A stretch of DNA of 50,597 nucleotides from a virus (lineage: Duplodnaviria; Caudoviricetes), in IMG/VR virus record IMGVR_UViG_3300021964_000106, positions 1 through 50,597 of that record; one strand, written 5' to 3'. A program made the translations under genes and the position numbers. Every line of letters starts with the position of its first letter. Within the stretch, counting starts at the first letter, position 1. Below are positions 1-50,597 of this stretch, one piece after another. A model generated the notes under the pieces. It did no database searches, was not told the origin of the DNA, and worked only from the letters and a program-made list of their open reading frames with translations.

Positions 1-31
1 TCCCATTTTCAACTTTTGCAAAATGACTCAT
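1..31 (-). CDS. 5' fragment of a fibre-associated accessory protein (paralog of 49201..49560), truncated by window edge
   Basis: Reads MSHFAKVENG vs MSHFAKVEDG at 49560; ATGA overlap with the stop of 28..810, same as in the other copy. Confidence 0.8.
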   Translation of the reverse strand, partial: MSHFAKVENG

Positions 32-810
32 GTCGTGTAACTTCCTGACGAAGTGTATGTAAGAATTGTGTTAGCACCTGATACGGTAACAGTTGGAGAA
101 CCTGTGGTAATCCCACTGTAACTTGAAGTGGGCATTCGTAATATCACAACACCTGATGCGCCAAGTTGACCATTGCCCGCAGTGTATGCCCTACCATCAC
201 CGCCATTGCCTGAGTTTGCTGGCTGTAGGTCAGTTTCTGGGTAATAATACCCATCTCCCCCTCTTGCATAAGTCACTGCTGTGCCTGTAATGTCATTAGC
301 CAGCCCGTTTGGTTGCGCAGTTCCCAAGCCTCCAGCACCGCCACCAGCACCTGAAGCATAACCTTGAGGATTTCCGGGGCCACCTGCATACCCTTGCCCT
401 GCTATACCGCTTCCGCCAATACTTGCTGAATTGAAACCTGCATTACCGCCACCTGAACCACCAGAATTACCGCCACCCGCTGAAGCCTGTCCGCCTTTGC
501 CACCTCCGGTTGACATAATTGACCCAAAGTAGCTGTTAGTTCCATTTGAATTGCTACCACCGCCCCCAACCGTTATGGTGTATACAAGTCCCGGGTCTAC
601 TGTTACAGCCGACTCAGTTGTTCCCCCACCCCCTGTAGGCGTAACGCTTGACCGTAGTCCACCAGCACCACCGCCACCACCACGAGTAGTTTGGTTGAAG
701 GGGCTATAACCACCTGAACCGCCCCCAGCAAGAACCAGATAATCAATATCATAAGGCCCAGCAGAAGCAGAAGCATTGACCCCAGCAAGTAAAGCAATTA
801 CTCCTGACAT
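28..810 (-). CDS. Glycine-rich tail fibre / receptor-binding-type protein, copy 1
   Basis: 260 aa with LVLAGGGSGG, GGGGGAGGL, YTITVGGGG and GASGVVILR motifs typical of phage Gly-rich fibre domains; lies in tail module. Confidence 0.75.
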   Translation of the reverse strand: MSGVIALLAGVNASASAGPYDIDYLVLAGGGSGGYSPFNQTTRGGGGGAGGLRSSVTPTGGGGTTESAVTVDPGLVYTITVGGGGSNSNGTNSYFGSIMSTGGGKGGQASAGGGNSGGSGGGNAGFNSASIGGSGIAGQGYAGGPGNPQGYASGAGGGAGGLGTAQPNGLANDITGTAVTYARGGDGYYYPETDLQPANSGNGGDGRAYTAGNGQLGASGVVILRMPTSSYSGITTGSPTVTVSGANTILTYTSSGSYTT

Positions 811-1142
811 TAGCTAACTGCTCCTGCAATAACGCAGACTGTGCCAGAGATAAAAAAAATAGAGCATAGTCCACGAGTGGCTAGTGTGACGTTTGCAACG
901 TCTGTGTCTGCTCCTGATATGTAGGCTGTCGTGATAGAACAAGTAATAGTTATATCACCTGTTGTATTGTTAAAAATATTAACTACATCGCCTTCACTAA
1001 AAGTAGCGTCAGGTATTGTAATGGAACCACCCGTACCTACTTGCACATACTGGCCTACATCATTGTTAGCCAATGTATAGCTAGATGTCTTTGTGCCTAC
1101 GGGGGCAACTATCCTATCTGCAATGTCTCTTGCGTTACTCAT
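810..1142 (-). CDS. Short fibre/adaptor beta-sandwich protein, copy 1
   Basis: Likely start MSNARDIAD at 1142 (ATGA overlap with upstream stop); ITIP..TFSEGDVV.IFN motif; TAATG coupling to 28..810. Confidence 0.65.
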   Translation of the reverse strand: MSNARDIADRIVAPVGTKTSSYTLANNDVGQYVQVGTGGSITIPDATFSEGDVVNIFNNTTGDITITCSITTAYISGADTDVANVTLATRGLCSIFFISGTVCVIAGAVS

Positions 1143-1726
1143 ATCTGTATCCACCCTGTAGTATTGTCTTCCTGATATGCGTCTTCATCCCAGTACGCTT
1201 CACCTTCTGGTTTAGGCAGTGGTGCGTTCCAGACAAATGCTGTGCTGTCGTAAGTCCAAGAGTCGTATGGTGACTCGTCAGGGCTTTCAGGCAGTGCGTT
1301 ATCCGGGAAGCCAGCCTGTGCAGGCACATCGCGTAGAGCATTCCTGTAGTTCTCGTAGACAGCCTTGTCATCAGTTGACAGTGGACTGTCAGGTAGAACC
1401 GCCCAATCAGTTTTAGCCAGCTTGTCATTGCGCTGGATGCGCACATTAGCCCTTTTCCCAATTAGCTCATTGGCAATGGCTTCAGGGGTTCTGTCTATAA
1501 TACTAAAAGTCTGGTAGGCAACGCCATCGCGTACTTCTATGACATCTTCAATGACCTTCTCGGTAGCTGAGTCATAGGTTGGTTTTGTGTCATCTGTCAG
1601 TCTGACCAAGTTGAGAGAGGCCAGTGTCGCGTCACTGAAGGGTAACGCAAATGAAGTGTTAGGATGGGCTTTGACAACTTGCCTCTCGCTAACTACTGTC
1701 TGTGATTCTGTGTTGTAGTATCTCAT
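1139..1726 (-). CDS. Tail fibre assembly chaperone-like protein
   Basis: R..RNDKLAKTDWAVLPDSPL...YRNALRDVPAQAGFP motif of phage tail assembly chaperones; directly follows the lectin-fibre gene. Confidence 0.8.
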   Translation of the reverse strand: MRYYNTESQTVVSERQVVKAHPNTSFALPFSDATLASLNLVRLTDDTKPTYDSATEKVIEDVIEVRDGVAYQTFSIIDRTPEAIANELIGKRANVRIQRNDKLAKTDWAVLPDSPLSTDDKAVYENYRNALRDVPAQAGFPDNALPESPDESPYDSWTYDSTAFVWNAPLPKPEGEAYWDEDAYQEDNTTGWIQI

Positions 1727-1734
1727 TGTGTTAC

Positions 1735-6728: not shown

Positions 6729-6734
6729 TTTCTT

Positions 6735-11214: not shown

Positions 11215-11874
11215 TTAACGTACACTAGGCATCTGATTAGCATCAAGCATTTGCTTACGAATTTCTTCGTCAGTCAATACACCTGTTGCAGGATCAGTGG
11301 GCCTAGTCATTAATCCACCGTCATAAGCCCTTTCTGCTTCATCCATCATTTTCTGAAGGTTTTCAGGGCCAATTTGATCGGTGGCTTTTTTAGTGATTAC
11401 AAATTCACCAGCAGATAGTCTTGCAGGTATTGAATCTGACACACCATTTCCCGGGCCATTAACCATACCTGACCCGACAAACTCTGAGGCAGTCTCTACA
11501 ACCTTGTCAAAGATTTGACTAAGCTGCGGATCTTGTCCCAAAGCATTCATTAGGTAGTCTTTTTCCTCATCTTCCAATGATTCATCAACTACGAAATCTA
11601 TATATTCTTGCATCATTTCTTCATCTGGAAGCTGTGATGCCATCGCCTCATCCATTTCTTCGGGCGGGATGTTGGGGTAAGTATCAACAGGTGCTGCTTC
11701 AGAAGCCATATCTGCCATTTCGGGAGGGACTAGCATACTTCCTTCAGCATATTTTTTCATCTTACCGCCAGCATACTTTTTCTCTTTATTTTCCATAGCG
11801 TAATATACCCGTTCACCTTTTTCTGAACCGTATTCTTTCTTCATGGCTTTCATTTTATCTTTGTTAACAGGCAT
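11215..11874 (-). CDS. Hypothetical virion-associated protein
   Basis: 219 aa; GMVNGPGNGVSDSIPARLSAGEFVI motif; acidic centre; between portal and scaffold. Confidence 0.6.
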   Translation of the reverse strand: MPVNKDKMKAMKKEYGSEKGERVYYAMENKEKKYAGGKMKKYAEGSMLVPPEMADMASEAAPVDTYPNIPPEEMDEAMASQLPDEEMMQEYIDFVVDESLEDEEKDYLMNALGQDPQLSQIFDKVVETASEFVGSGMVNGPGNGVSDSIPARLSAGEFVITKKATDQIGPENLQKMMDEAERAYDGGLMTRPTDPATGVLTDEEIRKQMLDANQMPSVR

Positions 11875-12649: not shown

Positions 12650-12883
12650 TTATGAAGTTTTACTTTCGTTAAGAGTTCTTCTTACATTATCTTTAAGCTG
12701 CTCTAGGCGTTCCAGAGAATTCACTCTCCCCTGACTGCGGTACAGCTCCAGTTCCGATGTTGCCCCCACCAGTACCCGTAACTCCAAGGTCTTGGCCTTC
12801 TGGAGGTACTCCTTCAGGGCTTCCCATAGTTCCGGGTTGTTCACCACCGGGGCCAGCTTGTGGGCCAGTTCCTTGTCCAGCAT
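12650..12883 (-). CDS. Small helical protein overlapping portal 3' end
   Basis: 77 aa amphipathic (ELYRSQGRVNSLERLEQLKD); AGGA upstream of ATG; fills the gap to the next gene. Confidence 0.65.
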   Translation of the reverse strand: MLDKELAHKLAPVVNNPELWEALKEYLQKAKTLELRVLVGATSELELYRSQGRVNSLERLEQLKDNVRRTLNESKTS

Positions 12884-28531: not shown

Positions 28532-29161
28532 ATGTCTTATTTAGTTGAATGCGAAAACTGTAACGAAGACTTAAAGATACAGCATCTTCACTGGGAAGAA
28601 CTTGTTTGTGCTGAGTGTGGTGATACAGTCAAAAACAACCTACCTGAAATGTATCGTGATTATATTAATCTACAATACAAAGATGGTATCTGGTACTACA
28701 CTGGTAATTCAGATGGAGCTAGGCGTACCCTAGAAGCGCATTTAAAAAAGAATAAGAAACGTATGTATGTAGGGGGTAAGTATGTACCTGTCAGTCATGC
28801 TACTCACAGCCCCGGCAGATTTAAAAACTACAATGACGTAGTATTCAAAGAGTATTACAAAACAAAAGATATAAAAGAAGGTAATGTATATCTTATATCT
28901 AATCCCGCTTGGAACGGCTGGCTTAAAGTTGGCAGGGCTATGTCAGTAGCTGATAGGCTAAATGCTTTTCAAACTGCATCTCCCTATAGAGATTATAAAA
29001 TTGAATACGCTATAGCAGTTGAAGATGCTCCCAAAATAGAAAGGCTTTTACATACTGCGCTGAAAAATAAGTTTCGTTCTAAGTATGAATGGTTTAAACT
29101 GGATGTTTCGGATGCATTAAATATAATAAATGAGGTGATAGATAATGAAGAAAACGATTGA
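28532..29161 (+). CDS. Zn-ribbon plus T5orf172/GIY-YIG-like domain protein
   Basis: CENC...CAEC; GNVYLISN.AW.GWLKVG.A...DRL..FQT.SP...E..LH...EWF. Confidence 0.8.
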   Translation: MSYLVECENCNEDLKIQHLHWEELVCAECGDTVKNNLPEMYRDYINLQYKDGIWYYTGNSDGARRTLEAHLKKNKKRMYVGGKYVPVSHATHSPGRFKNYNDVVFKEYYKTKDIKEGNVYLISNPAWNGWLKVGRAMSVADRLNAFQTASPYRDYKIEYAIAVEDAPKIERLLHTALKNKFRSKYEWFKLDVSDALNIINEVIDNEEND

Positions 29162-34611: not shown

Positions 34612-34814
34612 TATCGTTTAAACTATTGATAAACTTACACGGTGATTTAATTACCGAGGTAAGCATGCTGCCTAAAGATAAGATATCAAAAGTATTTAAA
34701 AAAGATGATGCCCCGCTAATTCATAAAGCAATTAGCGAGGCTGAAATAAAGTTGAAAGGACTACACAAATATTTAGAGGATGAAATATCTGCGTTTAATA
34801 ACTCCAAACTGTAG
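34596..34814 (+). CDS. Hypothetical protein, last gene of plus arm
   Basis: 72 aa, AGGAG RBS. Confidence 0.65.
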   Translation: MEGNLISFKLLINLHGDLITEVSMLPKDKISKVFKKDDAPLIHKAISEAEIKLKGLHKYLEDEISAFNNSKL

Positions 34815-35151
34815 GACGCACCCCGGTTGTTAAATCATCAAGATGTATAAACCGGGAGCTGCCTTTCTGATTAATTCCTATCCCTGTAAAACCAGCACGA
34901 AGAGCAGCCTCTACTAGCAGGTATGCTTCCGTCCTTGAAACAGCAATATCAATTGCTCTACCACTAGCATGCGCCCCCGGTAAATCTTTCTTAGCTTCTA
35001 TCGGGTGATTGTTGCAGCGGTAAGCACTAGTAACAGGAAAAGGAAAGCCCAGCTCTTCGCGCAGCTGCTCTACCTTTACCATGAAATCTTCCTTCATGCC
35101 TTGGCTTCCGCAATGTGAACATTTTAATTCATCTTCTGTAAAGTACTTCAT
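34795..35151 (-). CDS. Endolysin, peptidase M15A family
   Basis: YF..DELKCSHCG, VTSAYRC..H, H..GRAIDI, FIHLD; start MKYF with ATGA coupling. Confidence 0.9.
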   Translation of the reverse strand: MKYFTEDELKCSHCGSQGMKEDFMVKVEQLREELGFPFPVTSAYRCNNHPIEAKKDLPGAHASGRAIDIAVSRTEAYLLVEAALRAGFTGIGINQKGSSRFIHLDDLTTGVRPTVWSY

Positions 35152-38100
35152 GCTGCACACGCCTTCATTACTTTACCACCATCTGCGCGTTTATTTCTTT
35201 TAGCACAAGCACTCATTATCTTACCACCAGCTGCGCGTTGCTGACGTTTATTGATAATAGCATCATACATTTTTCTACGTTCTTCTTCGGCCTGTTTAGG
35301 ATTGTCATATCCTTTGATCACTCCGCTGTCTATCAGTTTTTTAAACTTCTTTCTAGTTCCACCAGCTGATAGTATTGTACCGCTTTCAGGATCATAGCTA
35401 GGAAGTAAGTACTCTTTGCCATTTACGCCAAGCCCTCTGATATACATTGTTACATCCTTCCCATCCATCTTACCAGCCATGTCACCGCGCACTACTGCAT
35501 CGTGATAGCTTTCTAAAAACTTAAAGTTTTCTGGGTGTATGTAACCGCCCTTAGCATACCCATGTAACTCCTGACTTTGGGCGGGAGTCATATAGCGGGC
35601 TTGCTGTTCATCTATCAGCTTGGTTATACGCTCCTCTGCTTCAGCCCTACTTTTAGCATTCATCGCATAACCTAGATTGTTGTTAAACTGATCCATCTCC
35701 CGTTCGGGGACGTTGGATATAACCTCCCGGGCATTGATCAGGAACTTGGATAACTCAGGTTTTTTAGAACGCTGTGCTAACCAGCCAAGGGCAAGATGTC
35801 GTGCTGCATCTCCCTTCCCGTCCATCTCTTCCCGTTGACCATACTTCATGCCAAGGGAGTTAGCCCATTCTATATCGCTCTTTTCTATGCCAAGGTTGGA
35901 GGCAATACCCCGGCCTACAGCGTTACCCGCTCCCTTCAGTTTGTTGGCTGTAATTTTGAAGATTGACTTCAATATCTTACCGCCTTCGTTGTATCTAGGT
36001 ATTTCTATCTGCTTGTCAGGGAGATCAATAACCAGCCAGCCATCTTCCATTTTAGTTGTAGTGCCAATGTCTTTAGCTATAGACTTAGCAATCTTAGGTA
36101 TCTCTGTTTCGTATCTTTGCTGTACTTCTTCAGATCGTACTAAATCATTAACACCTGAAGGATCAACAGCTATTTCTACACGGTCAAGACCTTCATCGTA
36201 TGCTCTTTGTATTTCACCATAGATACCCCGCTTAACGTATGGGAAGTCTGTTACTGGCATGATATACTCATCACCGAACATATCTTCAAACTCTTTTAGT
36301 TCTTTAATTTCTTCTTTAGTTTTATTAGGCTTATCACGCAGCTTCTTCCCTTTCTTTATTATTTCAGCCCTTTCTATATTACTGTTCAGCTGATCAGACT
36401 GTATCTCAAGTATCCTTACTGCACCATTTTCTACATCAGTTCGTGTATGGAAAGAGAACTCTCCTTCATCACGGAAATGAGTAGATTTACCCATTACACG
36501 AGGATCGTTGTATAGCCTTACTTTATAAGTATCTAGATTTGTGTCGGGAAGAGTAATTTCTGAAAAATCTACTTTTGTTGCGTCTGGCTCAAAGTAATTA
36601 ATGCTGGGTATTTCCCAACTCTCAAGTATCTCACTAAACAACATACCATCAATCTGTTCTGGTACAGTCTCAAATTCCTCTTCTAGATCATCTATAAAAC
36701 CAATGCCTTCATATTCGTCAACACCTTTTGGTGTAAGAGTAACGTCTTCTAAAAATGGTTCTCCGTTATTTCGGATTCCAAGCTTATAATCTTTTACTAG
36801 TCCGTTATCTACAGCCCTGTCCATTTCTACTTTATAGGCGTTTTCTATTGCGTCTAATCTTGCTTGGATAAGTTCTTCTTCAGGAGGTACTACAACCTCT
36901 GGTATGTCATCCATATCAACTTCTCTAACACCAAACTTATTTTTATCTGAACGAGCAGACTTTATAGTGTTTAGAATTTCAGGAGTTAACCTACCTTTTG
37001 TTGATATTTGAGACTTAGGTATTCTACCACCAGCATCATCCAAGTTGTTACCCAGAAACTCAATAGCATCTTTTATTCTAGATGATTCTATTTCTACTTT
37101 AGGTACACCCTGTTTAATTAAAAAATTTTCAAACGACTGAACAGGTATAGGCTGTCCACGCTCAATAAGCTTATCCAAAGCATTATCTAGCTTAGAAACA
37201 ACCTTTGCAGAAGGTGTACCAAAAGCAGTAGCAGGAGGAACAAATGCACCAGAGTCGCTCATAAACGCCTCTACAGCTAACTCCATTTCATTCTCTAACT
37301 CATTAGCTAAGTCCTCATCACCTTCTGCAAGAGCATCATTTATTCTTTCAAGATAGTCAGCTTCTATTTCTTCTTCGGCAGAAATCCGAGGCGTGTCTAT
37401 ATCCCGCGCTTGAATTTCATCCAAAGCATTAGTTATTTCGTAAGTGACATCTTGTGTATCAAAAGGCAATTCATCTGCCAGTTGATTAGCTTTTTTAAAA
37501 GCTTCTATTTCTTCTCGGGTATATCCACGCCAAATACTAAACTCGTCACCACCTATCGGCCCCTGCCATCCCTGTTCTCTCATCTGGTCAACAGTCAAAT
37601 CGTGCTTCTCGTCCAGAAGCGCACGAGCGTTTAACTGTGTAAACTCTTGGACTTTAGGATCGGCAAGTTCTTCAGGGGTGTAGAAACTTTCTATCCTTTT
37701 AGCAGCTGCTTCTGCTGCTTCATCAGATATATTCTTTTTAGAATAAGTTTTAATTATGTTAAATAAGCCTTTACCCAAACCACCCAGAGCAAACCCAACC
37801 CTTTCTTCTGAGTCTACAAAAGCACCACCCGCTTGCTGGTTGTAGGGCAAGCCTGTCATTTTGTCTATACGCTCGTCTGGTTCAACAGGTGCTTGAGGCA
37901 CATCATAGACCTCCCCACCTATAGCCCTTTTAAGTCGGGGGAAATACTCTGATTCCTTCCTTTCATTTTCAGGTTTCTCTAAAGGAGTAGCAATCATATC
38001 TGAATATAAATTGTTTAAGTTCTTTACTAGTGAACTTAAAGTTTCTTCATCTGTAAATTTAACTTTTTGATATATCCTGTATACATCATCAGATGTAATT

Positions 38101-41100
38101 TTTTCGGGCCTGAATCTGTTTGATGTCATCATCAACAGTTCTTCTCTACCTATAGTTATAGAACGGTCACTAATTAATTCTTTTAAAGCCTCATCCCTAC
38201 CCATTATAGTTTCAGCAGATTTTAAAACGCTGTAAAACTCTTGCGCCCTTTTGTAGATTGCATTTTCTCTAGTGTAATAATTAGAGATTACTTCTTCAGC
38301 TGTTGTGCCAAAGCTAGGATTATCAGAAATAATATTTCTTTTTGAATTGGCATATTCTTTAGCTGCAAATATCAACCTGTCTCTTGGATTAACTTCAGTG
38401 AATTTAAAACCAGTAGTATTTGTTATAGCCTCAGAAGCAACAGGAGTTACACTCCCGGTGCTAGGGCTGGGCGTTTCAAATATAGAGTCGGCTACACGTT
38501 CTAAACTAGAAACAGAGCCGGGCAGGAAAGAATTCATTACATGAAAAGTACCATTAAATACTTTATCCCATGTTGATAAACCTTCTTGAAATAAAGCTTT
38601 GCCTTCTCCTGTCCTACCATTTTCATTTTTAGCAGCTACATAAAGGTCAGTTAGGCTCTTTGTAAGAATTGCCTCATCGGTATAAGGAGATAGAATTTTA
38701 AGCACACCCGAGCTAATACCGTCAATTAGATATTCATCTAAATCTTCACCCTGTAACCTACCACTAGTAATTTCGTTGTAGGCTGCAAGTACTGGCTCAG
38801 TAAGTATGCTATAGCTATTAACAAACTGAGTATCCATTGCGAATATTTTATCGTCAAATCTAGCATACACTCTAGGCGCATCTTTTGACCAAGGAGTTTT
38901 GGTAATAGTATCTAAACTTTCTTTTTCTTCAGGTGTCAGCCCCAGCAAGTTTGCACTAGTGGCAGCTAATCCAGACCACATAGTACTAGCAGTACCGAAA
39001 CCAGCAAGTCTTCTCAGCCCTCTATTTCTTAAAACAGAATTACCAGATGTAATTTCTTTGGATGCCTGTCTTACTATATGTGTGCTGTTCCTTATAATTT
39101 CAGAAGGGAACGAAACAAAGCTTCCCACAGGTAGCTGCCGTAATGTTTTTATTCCTTTTGGGACTCTGTCATAATTTGGAAAAGTATTCCTAATAATTTC
39201 AGCAGCCATTTCCTCCAGTTCAGCATCAGGCTTTCCGAGGTTGGCTTTCTTTAGTGTATCTAGTTCTGATAGATAGCCATTAATTTTATAAAAATCGTCT
39301 GTTGCTAAATAAAAGTTTTCAATGGCTTCTCCGGTTTTTTTAATTTTACCCAGCCCATAGCCGTCCATCTTCTTAAAGAATTTATCAACATTACCTTCAA
39401 TAGCACTTTCATAGCCTGTCTCAAGAAGCTTTCTAAATTCATTAACAGATACGTTAGTGTTTATAATTCCAAGCCTCAGATATTTTTCATAAATATCATC
39501 TAGTCCCTGCTGACCTGTTTTTGAAATCTGATTCGCTAAAAGTTTTACTGTGCCAGAAGCTTTATTAAATGGGTTCATCCCATTAGCTAAACCAAACTGC
39601 GCACCACCACTTATGTTTCTTAAATGGGTAACGTGACTAAATACAGTTTTAGATTTCTGAGAATAGCCTTTTAACGAAAGAAAGCTTCTCCAAGCATTAG
39701 AAACCATGTGGTCTTCACCAGTTGGTGAGCCAAGTTTTAAGTAAGATTCCTGCTCTTTTATCGCAGTCAGTATTTCAGGAGTGGTATACTTACCATCAAG
39801 ATTAGAATTGGTTCCTGTAATTTTTACAAAGTTACCTTCTCTAGGTCTCAATGCCCCTTCATCAAAAATATAATTTCCCTGTTTACCCAGCCTTTCTAAG
39901 TTATCAAAAAACTTAGATGTTTCAACCAGCCTTGTCATTTTACTAACAGTTAAGACAATATTTTCTGTAGGTTCTTTGATCTCCCCCATAAAAGCACGGA
40001 GAGGTTCTGGGATATCTTTTTTACCTTTTAATATTTCAGTGTTAACTTTTCTAACTTTAGAATAGTACTCGCCAAGTTCTCCGCTTTTGCTTTTTAATTC
40101 GGGCTTAGAAATTATTTCATCCAGCACATTGTTAGCTTTAACTAAAGCATCATCTTCGGACATTGTTTTTTTGTATTGATTTACTAAGTAATCCTCTGCA
40201 TCTTTTCTAGCAGCAGCTGTAGGTGTGTACCCAGAATCTTCAAACAGACGATAAGACCTGCGCAAATACTGCCCGGTGTTCTCAGCGATAGCTTCTTTTA
40301 ATTCCAAAGGAACAGCATTTGAATTTACAGCTGCTTTTGAAAGATCATCAATTAACATCCTAGCTTCGTAAACAGATTCAGCTACTTCTTTAGTTAGACC
40401 TTCGTCCATTAAATCTACAATAGAAGCTTCTTTAGACTGCTTTTTAATAAAAGACAAATCTGATGTAAGAAGTTCCTGAACTTTATTGTTAACAGCCTGT
40501 GCTTCGTCCAGAGAAGATAAGTTATCTAATTCTATTTTTAACCTGTTACTGATATGCTCTGCCCTGCCAACAGCTGCACGTTGTGCATACTGTGCATCTT
40601 CAAACGCATGAAAAGCTTTAGGTGTCCAGTATCCACGGCTAGTAAATACTTGGTTCATAAAGCGTCTAAGTTTACTACTATTCTGTTGGGCTACTTGAGC
40701 AGCACCTTCAGCAGTCTCATTGTATTCAATCTCAGGACGTTTAATCGGAGACTGTTCTTTAATGTCTTTTACATGATCTAAAATTAGATCGCCTTTTTCA
40801 CTAGATGTCAGATCAGTATAGCTTTTCTTAAACTTGTCTCTTGCAAGCTTAGATACTTTAGCGACTCCCCCTACAATTTCAATAAGGCTACCCAAGGCAA
40901 GACCTTCGCCTAAAAGTTTTATTCTTTTTTCAGCTTCTGTATCATTTTCATCGGTAGCCATATAAGATGAAATTTCCTGTACGGCACTACCTCCCCAACC
41001 AGCTTCTTCTAAAAGATTAAATAAATTTTCAGATGGGTCAGCTAATATTTGATCAACAGCCACGCCAGTAGTGAGACCACCGACAACCGTAGGCAGGGCT

Positions 41101-41582
41101 TTAATTAATTTTGCCCTACCGCCAAGAACAGAACCAGCAACAAAAGTCCCTATTTCCGCACCAACCCCAACTACTTGACCTGTTAATGTTTCTGGCTCTT
41201 TTATGTTACCTTCAGGAGTCCAAAAAGCGTTATACATTTTTTCGGGCAAGTACTGCGTCAGCCTTTCTTTTTCTAAAGGAGTGACACCCTCTCGTGCAGT
41301 AAATTCATAAGGTTTAAAATCCTCACCGGGTTCCCAGCCTGATCCCGGACTCCATTTACCAATTTTCTGTGCTGTGTTAAGAAACACCCGCCCAAAATCA
41401 ACAGCAACACTAGGATCACTAACTTGCTCCTGCTCTTCTACTGCGGGAGATTCTGCTGGTGCTGTTGTTATTTCTTCAGGGTGACGGCCTAAATAGTCAT
41501 TTATAGCTTCTTCATCGGTAAACGAGTCTGGGACATCATTTATAACTTTGCCGTTAGGTAAACGTATGCTTCTTGTAGCCAT
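35148..41582 (-). CDS. Giant internal virion (ejection) protein with modular C-terminus
   Basis: 2144 aa, last of the internal-protein block; helical core (KTVFSHVTHLRN, DDFYKI..Y..E, AAEIIRNTFPNYDRVP, FVSFPSEIIR) plus appended modules. Confidence 0.75.
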   Translation of the reverse strand: MATRSIRLPNGKVINDVPDSFTDEEAINDYLGRHPEEITTAPAESPAVEEQEQVSDPSVAVDFGRVFLNTAQKIGKWSPGSGWEPGEDFKPYEFTAREGVTPLEKERLTQYLPEKMYNAFWTPEGNIKEPETLTGQVVGVGAEIGTFVAGSVLGGRAKLIKALPTVVGGLTTGVAVDQILADPSENLFNLLEEAGWGGSAVQEISSYMATDENDTEAEKRIKLLGEGLALGSLIEIVGGVAKVSKLARDKFKKSYTDLTSSEKGDLILDHVKDIKEQSPIKRPEIEYNETAEGAAQVAQQNSSKLRRFMNQVFTSRGYWTPKAFHAFEDAQYAQRAAVGRAEHISNRLKIELDNLSSLDEAQAVNNKVQELLTSDLSFIKKQSKEASIVDLMDEGLTKEVAESVYEARMLIDDLSKAAVNSNAVPLELKEAIAENTGQYLRRSYRLFEDSGYTPTAAARKDAEDYLVNQYKKTMSEDDALVKANNVLDEIISKPELKSKSGELGEYYSKVRKVNTEILKGKKDIPEPLRAFMGEIKEPTENIVLTVSKMTRLVETSKFFDNLERLGKQGNYIFDEGALRPREGNFVKITGTNSNLDGKYTTPEILTAIKEQESYLKLGSPTGEDHMVSNAWRSFLSLKGYSQKSKTVFSHVTHLRNISGGAQFGLANGMNPFNKASGTVKLLANQISKTGQQGLDDIYEKYLRLGIINTNVSVNEFRKLLETGYESAIEGNVDKFFKKMDGYGLGKIKKTGEAIENFYLATDDFYKINGYLSELDTLKKANLGKPDAELEEMAAEIIRNTFPNYDRVPKGIKTLRQLPVGSFVSFPSEIIRNSTHIVRQASKEITSGNSVLRNRGLRRLAGFGTASTMWSGLAATSANLLGLTPEEKESLDTITKTPWSKDAPRVYARFDDKIFAMDTQFVNSYSILTEPVLAAYNEITSGRLQGEDLDEYLIDGISSGVLKILSPYTDEAILTKSLTDLYVAAKNENGRTGEGKALFQEGLSTWDKVFNGTFHVMNSFLPGSVSSLERVADSIFETPSPSTGSVTPVASEAITNTTGFKFTEVNPRDRLIFAAKEYANSKRNIISDNPSFGTTAEEVISNYYTRENAIYKRAQEFYSVLKSAETIMGRDEALKELISDRSITIGREELLMMTSNRFRPEKITSDDVYRIYQKVKFTDEETLSSLVKNLNNLYSDMIATPLEKPENERKESEYFPRLKRAIGGEVYDVPQAPVEPDERIDKMTGLPYNQQAGGAFVDSEERVGFALGGLGKGLFNIIKTYSKKNISDEAAEAAAKRIESFYTPEELADPKVQEFTQLNARALLDEKHDLTVDQMREQGWQGPIGGDEFSIWRGYTREEIEAFKKANQLADELPFDTQDVTYEITNALDEIQARDIDTPRISAEEEIEADYLERINDALAEGDEDLANELENEMELAVEAFMSDSGAFVPPATAFGTPSAKVVSKLDNALDKLIERGQPIPVQSFENFLIKQGVPKVEIESSRIKDAIEFLGNNLDDAGGRIPKSQISTKGRLTPEILNTIKSARSDKNKFGVREVDMDDIPEVVVPPEEELIQARLDAIENAYKVEMDRAVDNGLVKDYKLGIRNNGEPFLEDVTLTPKGVDEYEGIGFIDDLEEEFETVPEQIDGMLFSEILESWEIPSINYFEPDATKVDFSEITLPDTNLDTYKVRLYNDPRVMGKSTHFRDEGEFSFHTRTDVENGAVRILEIQSDQLNSNIERAEIIKKGKKLRDKPNKTKEEIKELKEFEDMFGDEYIMPVTDFPYVKRGIYGEIQRAYDEGLDRVEIAVDPSGVNDLVRSEEVQQRYETEIPKIAKSIAKDIGTTTKMEDGWLVIDLPDKQIEIPRYNEGGKILKSIFKITANKLKGAGNAVGRGIASNLGIEKSDIEWANSLGMKYGQREEMDGKGDAARHLALGWLAQRSKKPELSKFLINAREVISNVPEREMDQFNNNLGYAMNAKSRAEAEERITKLIDEQQARYMTPAQSQELHGYAKGGYIHPENFKFLESYHDAVVRGDMAGKMDGKDVTMYIRGLGVNGKEYLLPSYDPESGTILSAGGTRKKFKKLIDSGVIKGYDNPKQAEEERRKMYDAIINKRQQRAAGGKIMSACAKRNKRADGGKVMKACAA

Positions 41583-43496: not shown

Positions 43497-44663
43497 TTAT
43501 GCTACTCCCATTGCTCTTTTCCAAGAACTTAGTGGTCTATAATAAACATCCCCCGGCTGGGCAATATCAAACTGAACCATAGGGAATCCAAACTGAGCAA
43601 GAGGTGCTGCTTCTTCTACATCATATTGTCCAAGAAGTACAGGCGATGCACCGTAAGCAGAAGTCCCGCCATAACCTACTTCAGGAGCAGAGAAATATTC
43701 TTGGGCAGCAGTAGTGATCCCTGCTGTAACTGCCTCTCCTGTTAGGTTAATACCAGAAGTAGATTTTTCTAATCCAAAATCGTAGTCTAATGCTTCTGCT
43801 TTAAGTTCATCTAGTGAACGGACAGGGGTTCCTAATTTAGAGGGGTCAGCAACAGCTTCCTCAAAACTAGGCATGGACATGCCATCTTTTAATAGATTTG
43901 GTTGCGCAGCTTCAATCCCACCTTTTGTAAATCCCGGTTCATACAAGCCAGCAGACTTCTGTGCTAACAAACTATCCCCACCTGTAATAGTTGCTTGCGC
44001 ACTAGGTTCCAAAAGCGGAATCTCAGGCATCTCAGGTACGTCTACTTTTAACGAGGGGGCAGCTTCCCTTGTTGGATCAAAAGCATCCGCAAAAGGATCA
44101 TCTACTATACTATCAGTTTTTAACATAGGTCTTGATACTGCTGCTTGTGTACGCTGATAAGTCGGGTCAAACTGATTCATCCATTTAGTTGAGCCAATTG
44201 TGGTGTTCCAAGTTTTAGCAGTAGCACCTGCTGCACGTTCAAATGCCCCACCAGTACCAAAAAAGTTATTAGCTGCCCCTTCAAAATTTACTCCGGGTAT
44301 TTTATTTAAAGCAGTTTTACCTACTTCACCAATAAAGTTTTTAACACCTGAAGTAACAGTATTAAAAGCTCTAGCAGACTGAGTCACAAACTTTGTCGCT
44401 GTGCCTATGACTGCTTTTGCTCCTTGTACTAAAGCATTACCACCAGCAGTACTAGCCCAAGCAGCTACCTTTCCTAACGTCCCTCCTAATGTTTTGAGCA
44501 AGGCTCCCCCGACCCCCGGCAGGATAAACGACATAGCAATTTGACCGACAATGCCGATCTTGTCCATGAATTTACCAACTTTCTTGGCAACCTTTTTAAT
44601 ACCTTTACCAATTTTCTTAAAGACTTTCTTTACGCCTTTAAATATCTTACTAAAAAATCCCAT
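43497..44663 (-). CDS. Internal virion protein with cationic amphipathic N-terminus
   Basis: MGFFSKIFKGVKKVFKKIGKGIKKVAKKVGK followed by a Gly/Ala-rich hydrophobic stretch. Confidence 0.65.
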   Translation of the reverse strand: MGFFSKIFKGVKKVFKKIGKGIKKVAKKVGKFMDKIGIVGQIAMSFILPGVGGALLKTLGGTLGKVAAWASTAGGNALVQGAKAVIGTATKFVTQSARAFNTVTSGVKNFIGEVGKTALNKIPGVNFEGAANNFFGTGGAFERAAGATAKTWNTTIGSTKWMNQFDPTYQRTQAAVSRPMLKTDSIVDDPFADAFDPTREAAPSLKVDVPEMPEIPLLEPSAQATITGGDSLLAQKSAGLYEPGFTKGGIEAAQPNLLKDGMSMPSFEEAVADPSKLGTPVRSLDELKAEALDYDFGLEKSTSGINLTGEAVTAGITTAAQEYFSAPEVGYGGTSAYGASPVLLGQYDVEEAAPLAQFGFPMVQFDIAQPGDVYYRPLSSWKRAMGVA

Positions 44664-44676
44664 GCTTAATTACCCT

Positions 44677-47595
44677 TTAAGATGTAAAAATACCAGTAAT
44701 CATATTAATTAATCTATCTACACCACTTGTGCTGCCGGAGTCAGCTATACCAGCTTCATTAGATAGTGCTGTAGCATACAATGTTGTAATACGTTGCTGT
44801 TCATTTTCAAATGCAGTTCTGGCATAAGTAGCCTCATCGCGTAACTGCTGCCAAATATTAGACAGCTCAGCACTAGTTAAGTTAAACGCCATTTGTGCAG
44901 CAGCTTGATTAGAGGCATTTTGTGCAGCAGTATTTATTGTATTAGACTGCCTACGCCATTCAATATTAGACTGCTGAATAGCTTGGGCATTCTGAGCATT
45001 CCAAATCTCACGCTGCTGATCCATTTGCGCATTGAATTGATCATACTGAGAAGTTAACTGGTTGTTAAATTTAGCCACATCAATTTCATTTCCTGCATTT
45101 ATAGCAGCCATTCTGTTCTGCTCAGTAGCATTAAACTGCCCCATTGCGTTTACTTGCGCAGTATTAAACTGTTCCATCTGAGCATTCAAGTTAGCCATAA
45201 ACTGATCAGCTTGCTGCTGAGATGCTGCGTTAAACTGTAAGGCAGCATTAGTTGCCGACTGATCTGACAACAGCCTCTGCTGTCGCATCTGTTGATCAAG
45301 AACAAGCGTCTGTTGCTCGTTAGACAGATTAGCCATATCAAGTGTCAGAAAGTTCTGTGCATTCTGAATGGCTAGCTTTGTACGTTGATCAGCTGTAGCC
45401 AAATCCATTGAAGCCAAAGCAGTAGCATTTTGCATAGCTGCTTGCTGCCTAGCATTCATATTAGCTAATGTAGTTGACTGCATAAACTGACTGTTAGCTA
45501 ACTCAACCTGCTGTGCTGCATTAAATTTATTTAAATCAATGTTAGCTACCATAGTAGCATTCTGTACTGCACGTTGCTGATCTACATTAAGCTGGGCTAC
45601 GTTTAACTGTTTAGCAATATCGGCAGCAGCTAAGTTTGTTTGCATCTGTGCATTTAGATTTGCTAACTCAGTTTGCTGTGCTGCATTTAGATTATCAGCA
45701 CCCGCCTGATTTAACGCAGAAAGATTAGCAAGTCTTGTCTGCTGGTCTGCACTTAGGTTAGCTAATTCCATCTGCTGTTTAAGGTCAGCATTTTTAGCAA
45801 GGAACTCCGCAGCTGTTTGAAACTCAGCAAGCTTGCCTTGGTTCTCAGCTGTCATGTTAGCTAAGTCGGTCTGGCTCTGTATCTGTAGATTAGCTAACTC
45901 AACCTGCTGAGTATTAGACAGGTTCTGTGCATTCATAGCTTGCTGATTCTGCGCGTTAAGTTCGGCAGTTCTTTGCTGGTTTTGCAAGTTCTGTAATGCT
46001 GTCTGCTGGGTTTGTTCAGCTGTAGCCAATGTAGCTTGCTGTCTAAACTGACTCTGTAACTGAGCCATGTCATTAGCCATTTGAGCGGTCTGACTACCAG
46101 CTGTTTGCTGATTAGCTAAGTTCTGCATACGTCTTGTCATATCTAACTGAGAAGACTGTAAGTTAGCTTGCTGCTGGTTGTTTAAATTCTGGGTTGCTCG
46201 GGCTTGTAGAGCCTGTGCATTAGACTGCGCAATAGGTAACGCACTCTGGATAATAGCATTGAAAAGCGAATCACGGCCTACAGTAGAAGCACTCATGCCT
46301 CTCTGTGCTAGGTTCTGCTCTACTAACTCTACTGCTGGTCTAGCCCATGTAGGAACCTGTCCTGACTCTAAACCACCCAGCAGTGTTTCCATCTGAGAAG
46401 ACATCAACGCTTCAGTAGGTAGAGCAGCAACAGCAGCTTGTACTTCTACGGGCTGACTATCTATCTCAGCGGTAACAGTGGCGGGGTCTTCTACAATTGC
46501 AGCAGTAATTGCTTCAGGTATTTCACCTACTTGTGCAACCATAGTAGCAGCTTCGCCTTTAGCTGCTTCACCTTTAACAGCCCTAGCCTGAGATGCTGTA
46601 TAGCTAATCTTATCTAGTATCTGCGCCTCAACGCCTGTAGGGGCAGTACCTGTTATAGCCTGACGCTCTTGCTTTTCAGCTTGAGGCGTAGCAGCTAGCG
46701 GAACCTGACCTACTGTAACCTCTGGTACAAAAGCATCTGGACTAATTGTATAGTCAGCAGCTTGAGCTGTTACCATTTCTCCCGCACCTACTTGTGCAGC
46801 TTGGGCGGGTGCGCTAAGTGTTCTAATTTCATCTACAGTTATTTCTGGACGGGCAACACCTTGTGCTGCTGTAGTACTATTTAACTCAGCAGCTAGGGCT
46901 GCTTGATACTGAGAGGGGCTTACCGTGCCATTCTGAATAGCTGTTTTAACATTTGATACAGCTGTTGTTAACTGTGATGCAGAAACTCCTTCTGGAGGGG
47001 TTAGCGTTGAAAACTCATCAAGCTGCTGTATTGCAGAGTCTGGAGTAATTCCTGTTTCAACATCAACAGTTGCAACTTTAGGTTTCATTGCTGCTGTTAT
47101 TTGAGGAACATTTAATGTTCTACGCTGCTCGGCTGTCAATTCGCTAGCCACAGGAGCGGGTGTTTTAGCCTGTATACCTGTCATTGTAGCAGGAGCAGAC
47201 GTAGGGGTATAACTACCACCCCCCGGAGTAGTAGGGCTATAATTATAATTAGGCGTATAAGTAGGCGTAGAGGCAGGAGGAGTACTTCGTGCTGCTTCTT
47301 GTGCTGCTTCTATTCTTGCTCTTTCTGCTTCTGCTAATTCTTCATTTGCCTTAATCTGCTGTTGTTGCAAAATTTGATTAGCCTGTTGAAAATTCTTACT
47401 CCCTTCTTTAACAGCTGCCCGTTCAATAGCAGATTGGATACTTGCAACAGATGTTCCTGTTTCTTTAGCAATGTCTTCTAAACTTTTTTGACCCGCCATA
47501 TATGCAGTTACATAGTCCTGCACAGAACCACCGTTAGCATAGTTAAAACGCTTAACCCCGCTTCTTTCACGGTTATATTTTTTTTGCTGTGCCAT
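44677..47595 (-). CDS. Gln/Asn/Ala-rich internal virion (ejection tube-like) protein
   Basis: 972 aa; repeated QQ.ELANL / QFNA units. Confidence 0.7.
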   Translation of the reverse strand: MAQQKKYNRERSGVKRFNYANGGSVQDYVTAYMAGQKSLEDIAKETGTSVASIQSAIERAAVKEGSKNFQQANQILQQQQIKANEELAEAERARIEAAQEAARSTPPASTPTYTPNYNYSPTTPGGGSYTPTSAPATMTGIQAKTPAPVASELTAEQRRTLNVPQITAAMKPKVATVDVETGITPDSAIQQLDEFSTLTPPEGVSASQLTTAVSNVKTAIQNGTVSPSQYQAALAAELNSTTAAQGVARPEITVDEIRTLSAPAQAAQVGAGEMVTAQAADYTISPDAFVPEVTVGQVPLAATPQAEKQERQAITGTAPTGVEAQILDKISYTASQARAVKGEAAKGEAATMVAQVGEIPEAITAAIVEDPATVTAEIDSQPVEVQAAVAALPTEALMSSQMETLLGGLESGQVPTWARPAVELVEQNLAQRGMSASTVGRDSLFNAIIQSALPIAQSNAQALQARATQNLNNQQQANLQSSQLDMTRRMQNLANQQTAGSQTAQMANDMAQLQSQFRQQATLATAEQTQQTALQNLQNQQRTAELNAQNQQAMNAQNLSNTQQVELANLQIQSQTDLANMTAENQGKLAEFQTAAEFLAKNADLKQQMELANLSADQQTRLANLSALNQAGADNLNAAQQTELANLNAQMQTNLAAADIAKQLNVAQLNVDQQRAVQNATMVANIDLNKFNAAQQVELANSQFMQSTTLANMNARQQAAMQNATALASMDLATADQRTKLAIQNAQNFLTLDMANLSNEQQTLVLDQQMRQQRLLSDQSATNAALQFNAASQQQADQFMANLNAQMEQFNTAQVNAMGQFNATEQNRMAAINAGNEIDVAKFNNQLTSQYDQFNAQMDQQREIWNAQNAQAIQQSNIEWRRQSNTINTAAQNASNQAAAQMAFNLTSAELSNIWQQLRDEATYARTAFENEQQRITTLYATALSNEAGIADSGSTSGVDRLINMITGIFTS

Positions 47596-47597
47596 GT

Positions 47598-47759
47598 TTA
47601 CTTACCTTTAATAACTGATAGATTAGCTGAACTTGTGTGTTCATGCTCTACGGATTTTATAAAATAATAAAGTTCCATTATTTGTTTAGGACTGTACTCG
47701 CCATTAGTATATTCTAATATAGTTAGAATTAAATTGACAGGTTCAGTAGAATATGTCAT
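47598..47759 (-). CDS. Hypothetical protein (53 aa)
   Basis: Hand-translated MTYSTEPVNLILTILEYTNG...; TAATG overlap; fills the gap. Confidence 0.55.
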   Translation of the reverse strand: MTYSTEPVNLILTILEYTNGEYSPKQIMELYYFIKSVEHEHTSSANLSVIKGK

Positions 47760-48067
47760 TAGCCTTTAACCCATTTTTTAGATTTTGACTTAGTCTTACT
47801 AGGACTCCATTTTTCTTTTGCTGCCCAATAAGCTGCTGACATTTTTCCTTTGGCTATGTTTTTTGCATGCCTTGATTCAAAAGCTTTGCGTTGTCCAACA
47901 GTTTGGTTTGTCTTAACTCCCTGCTGTCCAAATCTAATTGTCTTTATTTTGTCGCCTACTTTAGCCACAACGACATGAGATTTAGTAGGATGGCTTGGTG
48001 TACGTTTTGGTTTATTAAACCCACTAACTCCAGCCTTTTTTAGTCTTGGGTCTTTTTGGGTAGCCAT
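47759..48067 (-). CDS. Small very basic conserved phage protein
   Basis: GFNKPKRTPSHPTKSHVV.AK.G..KTIRFGQQG...RKAF.SRH....MSAAYWA...W. Confidence 0.7.
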   Translation of the reverse strand: MATQKDPRLKKAGVSGFNKPKRTPSHPTKSHVVVAKVGDKIKTIRFGQQGVKTNQTVGQRKAFESRHAKNIAKGKMSAAYWAAKEKWSPSKTKSKSKKWVKG

Positions 48068-49200: not shown

Positions 49201-49560
49201 CTATTCGCCTATGGTTATCCAGCCTGTTGTGTCCTCATCCCACGTATACTTATTACCATCATCCGGCATTGGAATGGGTGCTTCCCAAATACAGGACGCT
49301 TCATTTAAAGACCAGCTTGGGTAAGGCTGTGGGGCGTAAAACGCATCTCTACCAGAATCGTAAGTATAGCCAATACCTGCGTAGTTTTTTCTCAGTGCTA
49401 CACCGCCATCTGGTTCTCTGGTTTCAGGACTGTAATGCACACCTCCATAAGTATTGTATGAAGTCTGCACCCAAGTGCCTTCCTGTGTGTCCACAAAGTC
49501 TTGTTCAGCAACAATAACTTGCGTAACAATTCCGTCTTCTACTTTTGCAAAATGACTCAT
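49201..49560 (-). CDS. Fibre-associated accessory protein
   Basis: MSHFAKV, WVQTSYN, LRKNYAGIGYTYD..RDAF..PQPYPSW.L.E..C.WEAP.PMP motif. Confidence 0.75.
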   Translation of the reverse strand: MSHFAKVEDGIVTQVIVAEQDFVDTQEGTWVQTSYNTYGGVHYSPETREPDGGVALRKNYAGIGYTYDSGRDAFYAPQPYPSWSLNEASCIWEAPIPMPDDGNKYTWDEDTTGWITIGE

Positions 49561-50339
49561 GTCGTGTAACTTCCTGACGAAGTGTATGTAAGAATTGTGT
49601 TATCACCTGATACGGTAACAGTTGGAGAACCTGTGGTAACCCCACTGTAACTTGAAGTGGGCATTCGTAATATCACAACACCTGATGCGCCAAGTTGTCC
49701 ATAGCCCGCAGTGTATGCCCTGCCATCACCGCCATTGCCTGTGTTTACTGGCTGTAAGTCAGTTTCTGGGTAATAATACGCATCTCCGCCTCTCGCATAA
49801 GTCACTGCTGTGCCTGTAATGTTATTAGCCAGCCCGTTTGGCTGCGCAGGGCCAGCACCTCCAGCACCGCCACCAGCACCTGAAGCATAACCTTGAGGGT
49901 TTCCGCCTCCACCTGCATACCCTTGACCTGCTATACCGCTTCCGCCAATACCACTTGAATTGAAACCTGCGTCACCACCACCTGAACCACCAGAGGAACC
50001 ATCACCACCTAACGCTTGTCCGCCTTTGCCACCTCCGGTTGACATAATTGACCCAAAGTAGCTGTTACTCCCATTTGAATTACTACCACCGCCCCCAACC
50101 GTTATGGTGTATACAAGTCCCGGATCTACTGTTACAGCTGACTCAGTTGTTCCCCCACCCCCTGTAGGCGTAACGCTTGACCGTAGTCCACCAGCACCAC
50201 CGCCACCACCACGAGTAGTTGAGTTGTAAGGCGTGTAACCACCTGAAGCACCCCCAGCGACAACTAGAAAATCAATATCATAAGGCCCAGCAGAAGCAGA
50301 AGCATTGATACCCGAAACTATGGAGAGTAGTCCAGACAT
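49557..50339 (-). CDS. Glycine-rich tail fibre / receptor-binding-type protein, copy 2
   Basis: 260 aa, colinear without gaps with 28..810. Confidence 0.75.
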   Translation of the reverse strand: MSGLLSIVSGINASASAGPYDIDFLVVAGGASGGYTPYNSTTRGGGGGAGGLRSSVTPTGGGGTTESAVTVDPGLVYTITVGGGGSNSNGSNSYFGSIMSTGGGKGGQALGGDGSSGGSGGGDAGFNSSGIGGSGIAGQGYAGGGGNPQGYASGAGGGAGGAGPAQPNGLANNITGTAVTYARGGDAYYYPETDLQPVNTGNGGDGRAYTAGYGQLGASGVVILRMPTSSYSGVTTGSPTVTVSGDNTILTYTSSGSYTT

Positions 50340-50597
50340 CAGCTAACAGCTCCAGCTATGACACAAACTGTGCCTGATATAAAAAATATGGTACATAGAC
50401 CACGGGTTGCTATTGTAACGCTTGCAACATCTGTATCAGTACCGGATATGTAAGCCGTTGTGATACTACAAGTAATAGTTACATCTCCAGTAGTATTATT
50501 AAAAATACTAACAACATCACCCTCCGAAAACGTAGCATCTGGTATCGTAATTGAACCACCAGCACCTACCTGAACGTACTTGCCCGTGTCAGCAGTG
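50339..50597 (-). CDS. Short fibre/adaptor protein, copy 2 (5'-truncated by window edge)
   Basis: Hand-translated ...TADTGKYVQVGAGGSITIPDATFSEGDVVSIFNN...VCVIAGAVS*, paralog of 810..1142; TGATG overlap. Confidence 0.8.
   Translation of the reverse strand, partial: TADTGKYVQVGAGGSITIPDATFSEGDVVSIFNNTTGDVTITCSITTAYISGTDTDVASVTIATRGLCTIFFISGTVCVIAGAVS

Follow-up and report, generated by a model that had tools for sequence, protein, structure and literature searches.

What is the function of a short double-glycine motif that recurs along the tail of a giant phage protein? The question is raised by the complete virus record IMGVR_UViG_3300021964_000106 (50,597 bases, analysed as a whole and called the window below), in which a run of late genes without annotation encodes proteins of 972, 388, 190, 437 and 2144 amino acids (aa), the last and largest being a giant open reading frame (ORF) whose C-terminal part carries six copies of the motif. 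The initial annotation took these copies for boundaries between appended cargo domains and suggested that they act as a shared cleavage or capsid-loading signal. We find that the protein consists of a conserved core followed by cargo modules, which in relatives are gained, lost, reordered and split off at the motif, and that the motif is conserved also in two other late protein families. Our preferred reading, to which we give a probability of roughly 40%, is that the giant ORF encodes a polyvalent ejection protein with the motif as the joint between its modules, and with a peptide ahead of the cargo and a terminal helix as candidate tags.

Motif copies in the giant protein

35148..41582, minus strand: giant protein, putatively an internal virion (polyvalent ejection) protein, 2144 aa (ORF and homologues)
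37914-37919, minus strand: GG codons of KRAIGGEV, residues 1222-23
37779-37784, minus strand: GG codons of GFALGGLG, residues 1267-68
35979-35984, minus strand: GG codons of RYNEGGKI, residues 1867-68
35544-35549, minus strand: GG codons of GYAKGGYI, residues 2012-13
35223-35228, minus strand: GG codons of QRAAGGKI, residues 2119-20
35175-35180, minus strand: GG codons of KRADGGKV, residues 2135-36

All six copies are present at the coordinates originally claimed, among a total of 15 GG dipeptides in the 2144-aa protein. Written as [FYMR]..GG.[VILM], the pattern is seen five times in residues 1216-2144, where 0.18 occurrences are expected and where a count of five was reached in 0 of 5000 shuffles, while none is found in the core or in 28 early ORFs. 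Since this pattern was composed post hoc, with the data already known, the evidence from homologues outweighs the shuffle count. At the DNA level the copies share only 9-20 of 33 nucleotides (nt), the tandem pair at the C-terminus excepted, and therefore the constraint acts on the protein; a DNA-level recombination signal was ruled out on the same grounds. In the model of the tail (residues 1201-2144, mean predicted local distance difference test score, pLDDT, of 68) folded modules are separated by low-confidence stretches, and five of the six copies lie in stretches with pLDDT <50, the sixth, GFALGG (1267), being at a domain edge in a block with mean pLDDT 67. At four copies a modelled helix begins 1-5 residues past the GG, and a fifth, at 1267, sits inside helix 1258-1280.

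Exchange of modules and gene splits at the motif

35973..35993, minus strand: putative joint YNEGGKI, residues 1864-1870 (motif; pLDDT <50)
35553..35972, minus strand: cargo module D, residues 1871-2010, DUF6973-like (Pfam, VIA, BFVD)
35538..35558, minus strand: putative joint YAKGGYI, residues 2009-2015 (motif; relatives ending just upstream)
35238..35537, minus strand: cargo module E, residues 2016-2115 (before module D in P0010-P0012, after D in the window)

Six close relatives differ from each other by whole modules. One (P0037) has no module between the two flanks, three (P0013/14/16) have module D there, and two (P0011/12) have E and then D, with every D or E insertion beginning right past one GG and ending with the next. 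The order of modules is also reversed, being D,E in the window and E,D in P0010-12. At YNEGGKI, G1867 is invariant and G1868 is at least 90% conserved in 26 sequences. Gain and loss of modules exactly at the motif, which the initial annotation had named as its own check, is thus what these six relatives display, and its picture of a core with appended, exchangeable cargo modules is upheld by the indels and reordering in relatives and by the folds described below.

The motif is found as well where the gene is naturally divided. In two loci (L002 and L006) the core is encoded in one ORF and the cargo string in another, which overlaps it and starts with M/V-x-x-[FY]-x-K-GG ('VKKFYEKGGSV..' in L002, 'MTKTVLRFKKGGEV..' in L006). 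In G001 the split falls after the peptide that precedes the cargo, and the next ORF starts MALGGLTKLITKSIL ('MALGGLTKL..'), equivalent to GFALGG-LGKGLFNIIK of the window. In all three kinds of gene split the motif is therefore at the start of the downstream ORF. Six relatives (five distinct sequences) stop at ..RGY, 2-3 residues ahead of the GG that is present in others, and three stop right after the pre-cargo peptide.

As a module boundary the motif nevertheless stands only in part: indels and splits fall at GG, but not every boundary has the motif, as about five of the nine similarity boundaries in the tail of the giant protein carry it, and four more GGs (residues 1252, 1344, 1518 and 2074) are not on boundaries. 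Of the 1328 BLAST breakpoints in 122 cargo regions, 19.1% are no more than 6 aa away from a GG, as against 8.8% of all positions, so that the association between breakpoints and GG is clear but partial.

The core and the pre-cargo peptide

37938..41582, minus strand: conserved all-helical core, residues 1-1215 (relatives, AlphaFold, structural matches)
37776..37937, minus strand: pre-cargo peptide, residues 1216-1269, KRAIGG-EVYDVPQAPVEPDERIDKMTGLPYNQQAG...-GFALGG (bounded by two motif copies)

A word-indexed search yielded 49 relatives, and the core is 31-59% identical over ~1000-1200 aa to at least 45 relatives; by BLAST it is matched in 57 of the 195 proteins retrieved. The AlphaFold model of residues 71-1270, built from a 45-row alignment, is all-helical with a predicted template modelling score of 0.67. 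Its top two structural matches out of 935 chains are 8vb2_A, the tetrameric PhiM1 ejection (ejectosome) protein (Z 6.9, root-mean-square deviation 8.0, 268 residues aligned), and 9jyy_I, a T7 core chain (Z 6.7, 258 aligned), and the matches ranked after them have Z of 5.3 and 4.2. This suggests a weak resemblance of the modelled core to T7 gp16 and PhiM1 ejectosome proteins. Foldseek against the PDB at E<=0.001 gave no match for either model run, comparison of the giant protein with Pfam and PHROGs found no SLT or lysozyme family, and invariant Cys, His or Ser residues are absent from the core alignment. Cellulophaga phages have distant homologues, which carry the annotation virion structural protein. 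In the cultured Pseudoalteromonas phage vB_Pun_Y3 (L013, locus 1-8220) the core homologue, of 1027 aa, is annotated as an ADP-ribosyltransferase and is preceded by a separate 3421-aa protein annotated as DdrB-like ParB, with the 45-aa peptide absent; by these annotations, core and polyvalent cargo are there separate genes in the opposite order.

The first GG of the tail opens a peptide of ~45 aa which is the best-conserved element of the region. A scan of residues 1205-1280 against 1.84 billion representatives found it in 274 protein clusters at E<=1e-3 (111 at E<=1e-10), with the consensus ..[FY]AKGG-EVxVPQAPxEPDERIDKMTGLPYNxQAG.. and 55-79% identity even where the remaining sequence is unrelated. 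The GG upstream of the peptide is present in 175 of 179 relatives and the GG downstream in 115 of 153. The peptide occurs in the giant ORF of all five near-complete related virus records, and it has no match among 50,697 GenBank phage records. Its pLDDT is <60 overall (38-57 in the core model) and it is not docked on the core, so that tethering in cis is not supported by this single-chain core model.

Cargo modules

37323..37775, minus strand: cargo module A, residues 1270-1420, helical (common to P0003, P0004, P0007 and P0030; pLDDT 85-95)
36003..36947, minus strand: GNAT-like cargo region, residues 1546-1860, with a low-confidence insert at 1618-1685 (VIA, Foldseek)
47759..48067, minus strand: free-standing 102-aa ORF, homologue of a cargo module fused after a GG joint in P0017

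AlphaFold predicts at least five separate folded modules after the core, and between relatives the modules that follow the peptide are unrelated. The region 1546-1860 matches GNAT acetyltransferase folds in VIA with Z 7.7-9.0 over ~110-125 aligned residues: about 45 of the 50 entries listed are GNAT proteins (the other five are not), and among them are the tRNA-acetylating toxins TacT/AtaT and the anti-CRISPR AcrVA5. For the same region the Foldseek E value is 0.2, Pfam has no match and the Atlas search returned just unnamed viral clusters with scores <=0.87. Module D has a DUF6973 match in Pfam (E 0.0085, under the cut-off) and in VIA matches the Bacteroides type VI secretion system (T6SS) effector BteO with Z 9.5 (9uu0_B, residues 379-529), a protein described as binding OmpA-type domains (PMC12541434). 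Matches in BFVD include large-polyvalent-protein-associated, ART-PolyVal-like and DUF6973 proteins, those to LPD proteins having E of 4e-3 to 2e-2. Judging by these comparisons of models, the cargo folds look effector-like (GNAT-like, T6SS BteO-like). The window's giant protein has no ART-PolyVal, LPD, DdrB-ParB or MPTase above Pfam cut-offs, and MPTase was seen neither in it nor in relatives. In the cargo strings of 25 relatives Pfam identified LysM in five, ART-PolyVal above cut-off in one (P0150, 39.3 vs 31.2 bits) and DUF6973 in one, and ParB_N matches in relatives are weak and under the cut-off.

Searches for free-standing modules yielded little: that for shorter homologous proteins gave four matches, that with module D alone gave two, and modules D+E had no match by tblastn against GenBank phages. 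One free-standing module is encoded in the window itself, where the 102-aa ORF is 56% identical over 79 aa (E 3e-24) to the module of P0017; the free-standing ORF carries no motif.

The C-terminal tail

35151..35237, minus strand: duplicated C-terminal tail RAAGGKIMSACA / RADGGKVMKACAA, residues 2116-2144 (two tandem copies, 25/33 nt shared)

The giant protein ends with two tandem copies of a tail that recurs: 50 of 145 cargo-bearing relatives finish with ..GGx[VILM] and at most 16 residues, compared to 2.0% of shuffled cargo regions, and the tail is mostly GGKV[LM]x[SA][LC]x[RK].., a short basic amphipathic helix. In the cultured pelagiphage HTVC115P the giant protein, gp40, of 1893 aa and unrelated, ends ..FKSGGLLDKKRG. 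Many tails have a conserved Cys 2-4 residues from the C-terminus (..KACAA, ..KACSK, ..RSNCN, ..HRNCA). That the ..ACAA / ..ACSK ends are a lipobox or a prenylation site was considered and dropped, as the context of a signal peptide is absent.

The motif in other late proteins

47521..47541, minus strand: motif YANGGSV, residues 19-25 of the 972-aa Q/N-rich internal protein (ORF 44677..47595; conserved in homologues)
11215..11874, minus strand: 219-aa protein between portal and scaffold genes (motif copies at both ends; tape-measure-like GEFV mini-domain)

Two other late proteins had been said to carry similar motifs, and both the positions and the conservation in the two families are confirmed. 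In the ORF 44677..47595 (minus strand) NYANGGSV occupies residues 18-25, and in this family the motif is conserved: 17 of 27 distinct N-termini have xxxGGx[VILM] among their first 60 residues, and it is kept in four of six genomes. In the N-termini from L053, L055, L056 and L072 the basic helix known from the giant-protein tail (here KVLKALRQKR-like) precedes the GG. In the 219-aa protein KYAGGKM, KYAEGSM and AYDGGLM are at residues 33, 41 and 183, and in longer members of the family inserted modules are bracketed by repeated copies of the GGS[IL]MVPxE type.

The central mini-domain of the 219-aa protein, GPGxGxSDSxPAxLSxGEFV (11275-11547, minus strand), matches tape-measure proteins in 527 GenBank phage records, which include Klebsiella, Mycobacterium and Gordonia phages. 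Four of these 527 were examined (Gordonia Jormungandr, Mycobacterium Lolly9, Klebsiella vB_Kp_H02 and Carvaje), and in all four [aromatic]-x-x-GG-x-[VIL] stands directly before and/or after the mini-domain. An Atlas lead from the 219-aa protein to crAss_CARG1, the domain of crAss001 cargo protein 1, scored 0.82, below the level at which such leads are trusted.

Role of the motif

What is the role of the motif then? We propose that a T7-gp16-like helical internal-core part (residues 1-1215) carries a string of independently folding, exchangeable cargo modules, and that the motif, (aromatic or Arg)-x-x-G-G-x-(V/I/L/M), would be a standard joint in phage proteins that are stored extended and ejected via the tail. 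It is the combination of a gp16-like core with effector-like cargo folds that points to a polyvalent ejection protein. In the joint, a helix-breaking GG flanked by hydrophobic residues would lie within a disordered linker, which would allow neighbouring modules to fold and unfold on their own, and since the same joint would end every cassette, in-frame insertion, deletion and reordering of cassettes, as well as gene splits, could all take place there. The joint would also connect the terminal elements, namely the basic amphipathic helix (KVLxSLxR-like), which sits at the C-terminus of the cargo string and at the N-terminus of some 972-aa-family proteins, and the invariant 45-aa peptide between core and cargo. 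It is this peptide and the terminal helix, not the GG itself, that are our candidates for docking or packaging tags, and the chain is not assumed to be cut. We infer, in this scheme, ejection, the structural role of the joint and the function of the tags. Recurrence of the motif in tape-measure proteins would fit, as these share extended storage and threading through the tail.

Several observations sit less well with this proposal. At least four boundaries (near residues 1420, 1456, 1554-1579 and 1657-1673) do without any GG. The census of six genomes gave 26 motif matches where shuffles gave ~15.7, a modest enrichment; 13 of the matches are in giant or cargo ORFs, four at the N-terminus of the 972-aa family, three in the 219-aa family and six elsewhere, three of these last standing right at the C-terminus of small ORFs from related genomes. 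Conservation of the flanking residues also exceeds the needs of a passive linker, both in the [FY]-A-K-G-G-E-V profile before the peptide (159 distinct instances) and in the 219-aa family, where AERAYDGG is kept in 16 of the 18 homologues printed (one has DCG and one KKAQGGLM). Tandem copies of the tail recur (in the window, L001/2 and L003/4), which suits a binding motif better than a joint. The match to gp16 has Z <8, which for a helical model may reflect just a common arrangement, and it is synteny (a late/internal-protein operon) and fold from which packaging and ejection of the giant protein are deduced.

Another possibility, which we hold to be doubtful, is that the motif itself is a short linear docking or loading signal for a common partner, with portal, scaffold, coat and core stack as candidates, inside the procapsid or the channel of the tail, by which the flanked modules are co-packaged in parallel to the T4 capsid-targeting sequence (CTS), encapsulin cargo-loading peptides and crAss001 gp45. 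Three different internal-protein families do have the motif conserved at their termini, its context is disordered, its tandem C-terminal copies suggest avidity, the GG before the 45-aa peptide is nearly invariant (175/179), and the three small ORFs in related genomes have it at their extreme C-terminus; T4 CTS (PMC3012670), crAss001 gp45 (PMC10172136) and the encapsidation region of the N4 virion RNA polymerase (PMC5512222) are described precedents. However, the 102-aa free-standing homologue of a cargo module lacks the motif, and the copies between every pair of certain modules exceed what loading would need. As for the capsid-loading role initially suggested, the same motif flanks the mini-domain in tape-measure proteins, which are located in the tail and are not capsid cargo, and that suggestion is not supported.

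The other role initially suggested, a polyprotein cleavage site at which a protease cuts after GG, at maturation or after ejection, and so frees the modules, we consider unlikely. GG at P2-P1 with an upstream hydrophobic residue resembles viral GG-X sites such as those of adenovirus and African swine fever virus, and the short stretches ahead of GG in the split cargo ORFs and the 972-aa family would resemble propeptides. For Tal of phage TP901-1, processing is described at NGGGNSGGGD, directly ahead of the catalytic cargo domain (PMC11409707), and polyvalent proteins are predicted to be processed (PMC5512222). As for the enzyme, an M15 peptidase gene overlaps the 3' end of the giant gene in most relatives, but M15_3 enzymes are cell-wall peptidases and the gene is at the place expected for an endolysin. 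Scans of 23 late ORFs (PHROGs), 31 ORFs (Pfam) and further ORFs of the window, and of the cargo strings of 25 relatives, turned up no protease of the prohead, cysteine (the clan CE enzymes of adenain / ASFV pS273R type included), zincin or M23 families, an unrecognised protease being possible, and the core has no invariant Cys, His or Ser of its own. The residue after GG, which would be P1', varies (K, E, S, L, Y or I), and autoproteolysis by N-O shift (SEA/GPS type) was ruled out, as there is no constant nucleophile at this position. If GG were cut, moreover, the best-conserved element would come off as a 45-mer and the tail in pieces of 8-16 residues, and there would be no purpose to tandem terminal sites. 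It is very unlikely, finally, that the GG-linked basic amphipathic helices act in the host, inserting into the membrane during channel formation or binding DNA, with the motif just as a tether. The tails are basic and amphipathic, T7-type ejection proteins are reported to form envelope-spanning channels (PMC11440229; PMC10172136) and some cargo looks envelope-directed (LysM in 5/25 relatives, the BteO-like fold), but the helices have merely 8-12 residues, many internal joints have no such helix after them, and the joints of tape-measure proteins would be left unexplained. Of the initial interpretation, then, modular cargo and a shared motif are supported, while cleavage and capsid loading are not.

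Gene order and other features of the record

34795..35160, minus strand: Peptidase_M15_3 gene, probable endolysin (overlaps the stop of the giant gene; syntenic in relatives)

The DNA of the portal-to-capsid block is 65-73% identical to that of Pelagibacter phages HTVC115P/103P/104P, Roseobacter CRP phages and Puniceispirillum phage HMO-2011, and because of this identity the window virus is, judging by sequence, an HMO-2011-type marine podovirus. HMO-2011-type phages are described as being among the most abundant marine viruses (PMC9038755). The late genes on the minus strand comprise terminase, SU10-type portal and adaptor, a scaffold-like protein, the major capsid protein, tail and fibre proteins, holin and the M15 peptidase, while the plus strand carries the early/replication block with primase-helicase, family A DNA polymerase and ribonucleotide reductase. 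Six late proteins compared with NCBIfam gave nothing. The 388-aa late protein (43497-44663, minus strand) has a very basic amphipathic start and then Gly-rich hydrophobic repeats (..PGVGGALLKTLGGTLGKV..), with a weak match to T7SS_signal (E 0.002, under the cut-off), and may be a membrane-active ejection protein.

In several relatives an ORF of ~430 aa lies downstream of the giant gene (L002:11042-12340; L003:10974-12260), with weak cytochrome-c-type matches (E ~1e-3, under the cut-off); it is not in the window. In Pelagibacter phage HTVC115P (L209) a gene annotated as toxin-activating lysine-acyltransferase (12831-13280) is within the internal-protein cluster, directly after the homologue of the 972-aa protein. 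On the plus strand of the window a T5orf172/MUG113 (GIY-YIG-like) ORF (28532-29161) is found between the 582-aa ORF of family A DNA polymerase and a 286-aa ORF, for which Pfam has no match, and may be a homing-endonuclease insertion which splits the polymerase gene. The ends of the record (8-1055 and 49537-50584) share 1051 nt at 88% identity and cover two paralogous Gly_rich_2 genes (28..810 and 49557..50339); this may be a terminal repeat that has since diverged, a true duplication of the gene, or the result of an assembly that wrapped around two strain variants.

Comparison with known systems

The idea of cargo domains on injected phage proteins is already known, while for the joint motif, the pre-cargo peptide and the tail we found no description in open-access text. 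The text of the main genomics paper on HMO-2011-type phages (PMC9038755) contains none of the words 'internal virion', 'ejection' or 'polyvalent', and a search of the open-access literature for the peptide strings returned nothing relevant, just unrelated SARS-CoV-2 papers. The paper on the phiRIO-1 virion reports no processing in phiRIO-1 and names HMO-2011 solely for a tail protein. A defined grammar of joint and tags would allow the automatic delimiting of cargo domains in giant proteins of thousands of uncultured phages, and would so indicate the site of the anti-host arsenal that phages inject. If the tags direct packaging, they would offer an easy way to load podovirus particles with foreign proteins, and the presence of the motif in tape-measure proteins of unrelated phages hints at a general building rule for proteins that pass the tail channel.

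Among the closest systems are the polyvalent proteins of phages and conjugative elements (Iyer, Burroughs, Anand, de Souza, Aravind 2017, PMC5512222), described as giant phage proteins with many effector domains which travel with the DNA. The protein of the window resembles them in being giant and multidomain, in having at least two unrelated effector-type folds and a mosaic, shuffled architecture, and in its predicted co-travel with DNA. It differs in that PMC5512222 proposes processing by zincin-like peptidases and no such domain was found here; the words 'glycine' and 'linker' have 0 occurrences in that text, and the joint motif, the 45-aa peptide and the C-terminal tail are undescribed there. 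With T7 gp16-type and PhiM1 ejectosome proteins it shares the position as the largest and last gene of a podovirus internal-protein cluster and a long helical build. gp16 carries an N-terminal lytic transglycosylase as a cargo domain, and in contrast to this single N-terminal domain our protein, which has no sequence similarity to gp16, has a string of several cargo modules at the C-terminus.

Polymorphic toxins have junction motifs at the pre-toxin position, VENN in CdiA and DPxGL in Rhs. As there, a short conserved peptide parts the conserved delivery region from variable C-terminal modules and marks the swap point, but here it belongs to a phage virion protein rather than a secreted toxin, and several modules stand in series. 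A cognate immunity gene was not found directly downstream, where the M15_3 gene (window, L003, L006) or the ~430-aa ORF (L002, L003) is encountered instead. As in Tal of TP901-1/Tuc2009, where a glycine-rich junction is described just before the cell-wall-degrading cargo domain of a virion protein (PMC11409707), glycines precede the cargo; the Tal site is a longer glycine run (NGGGNSGGGD) with demonstrated cleavage, whereas the motif here is a patterned stretch of seven residues. The crAss001 gp45 protein, to which there is no detectable homology, is described as an extended cargo protein with short structured segments on portal wing and tail barrel, ejected via partial unfolding (PMC10172136).

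In T4 the CTS lies at the N-terminus, from which the prohead protease gp21 cuts it off. Here the motif is at either end as well as internal, and no protease was found. The likeness is that in T4, too, diverse injected proteins share just a short conserved terminal peptide (PMC3012670). It is a rather doubtful extension of our proposal that GG joint, 45-aa peptide and basic helix together make up a portable address-and-connector system for virion loading and host delivery, and just as tentatively such a system would serve abundant marine podoviruses, the joint alone serving also the tape-measure proteins of siphophages. If true, it could be used for plug-and-play cargo, and it might then, with the same reservation, be regarded as the podovirus counterpart of the T4 capsid-targeting sequence or of the encapsulin loading peptides.

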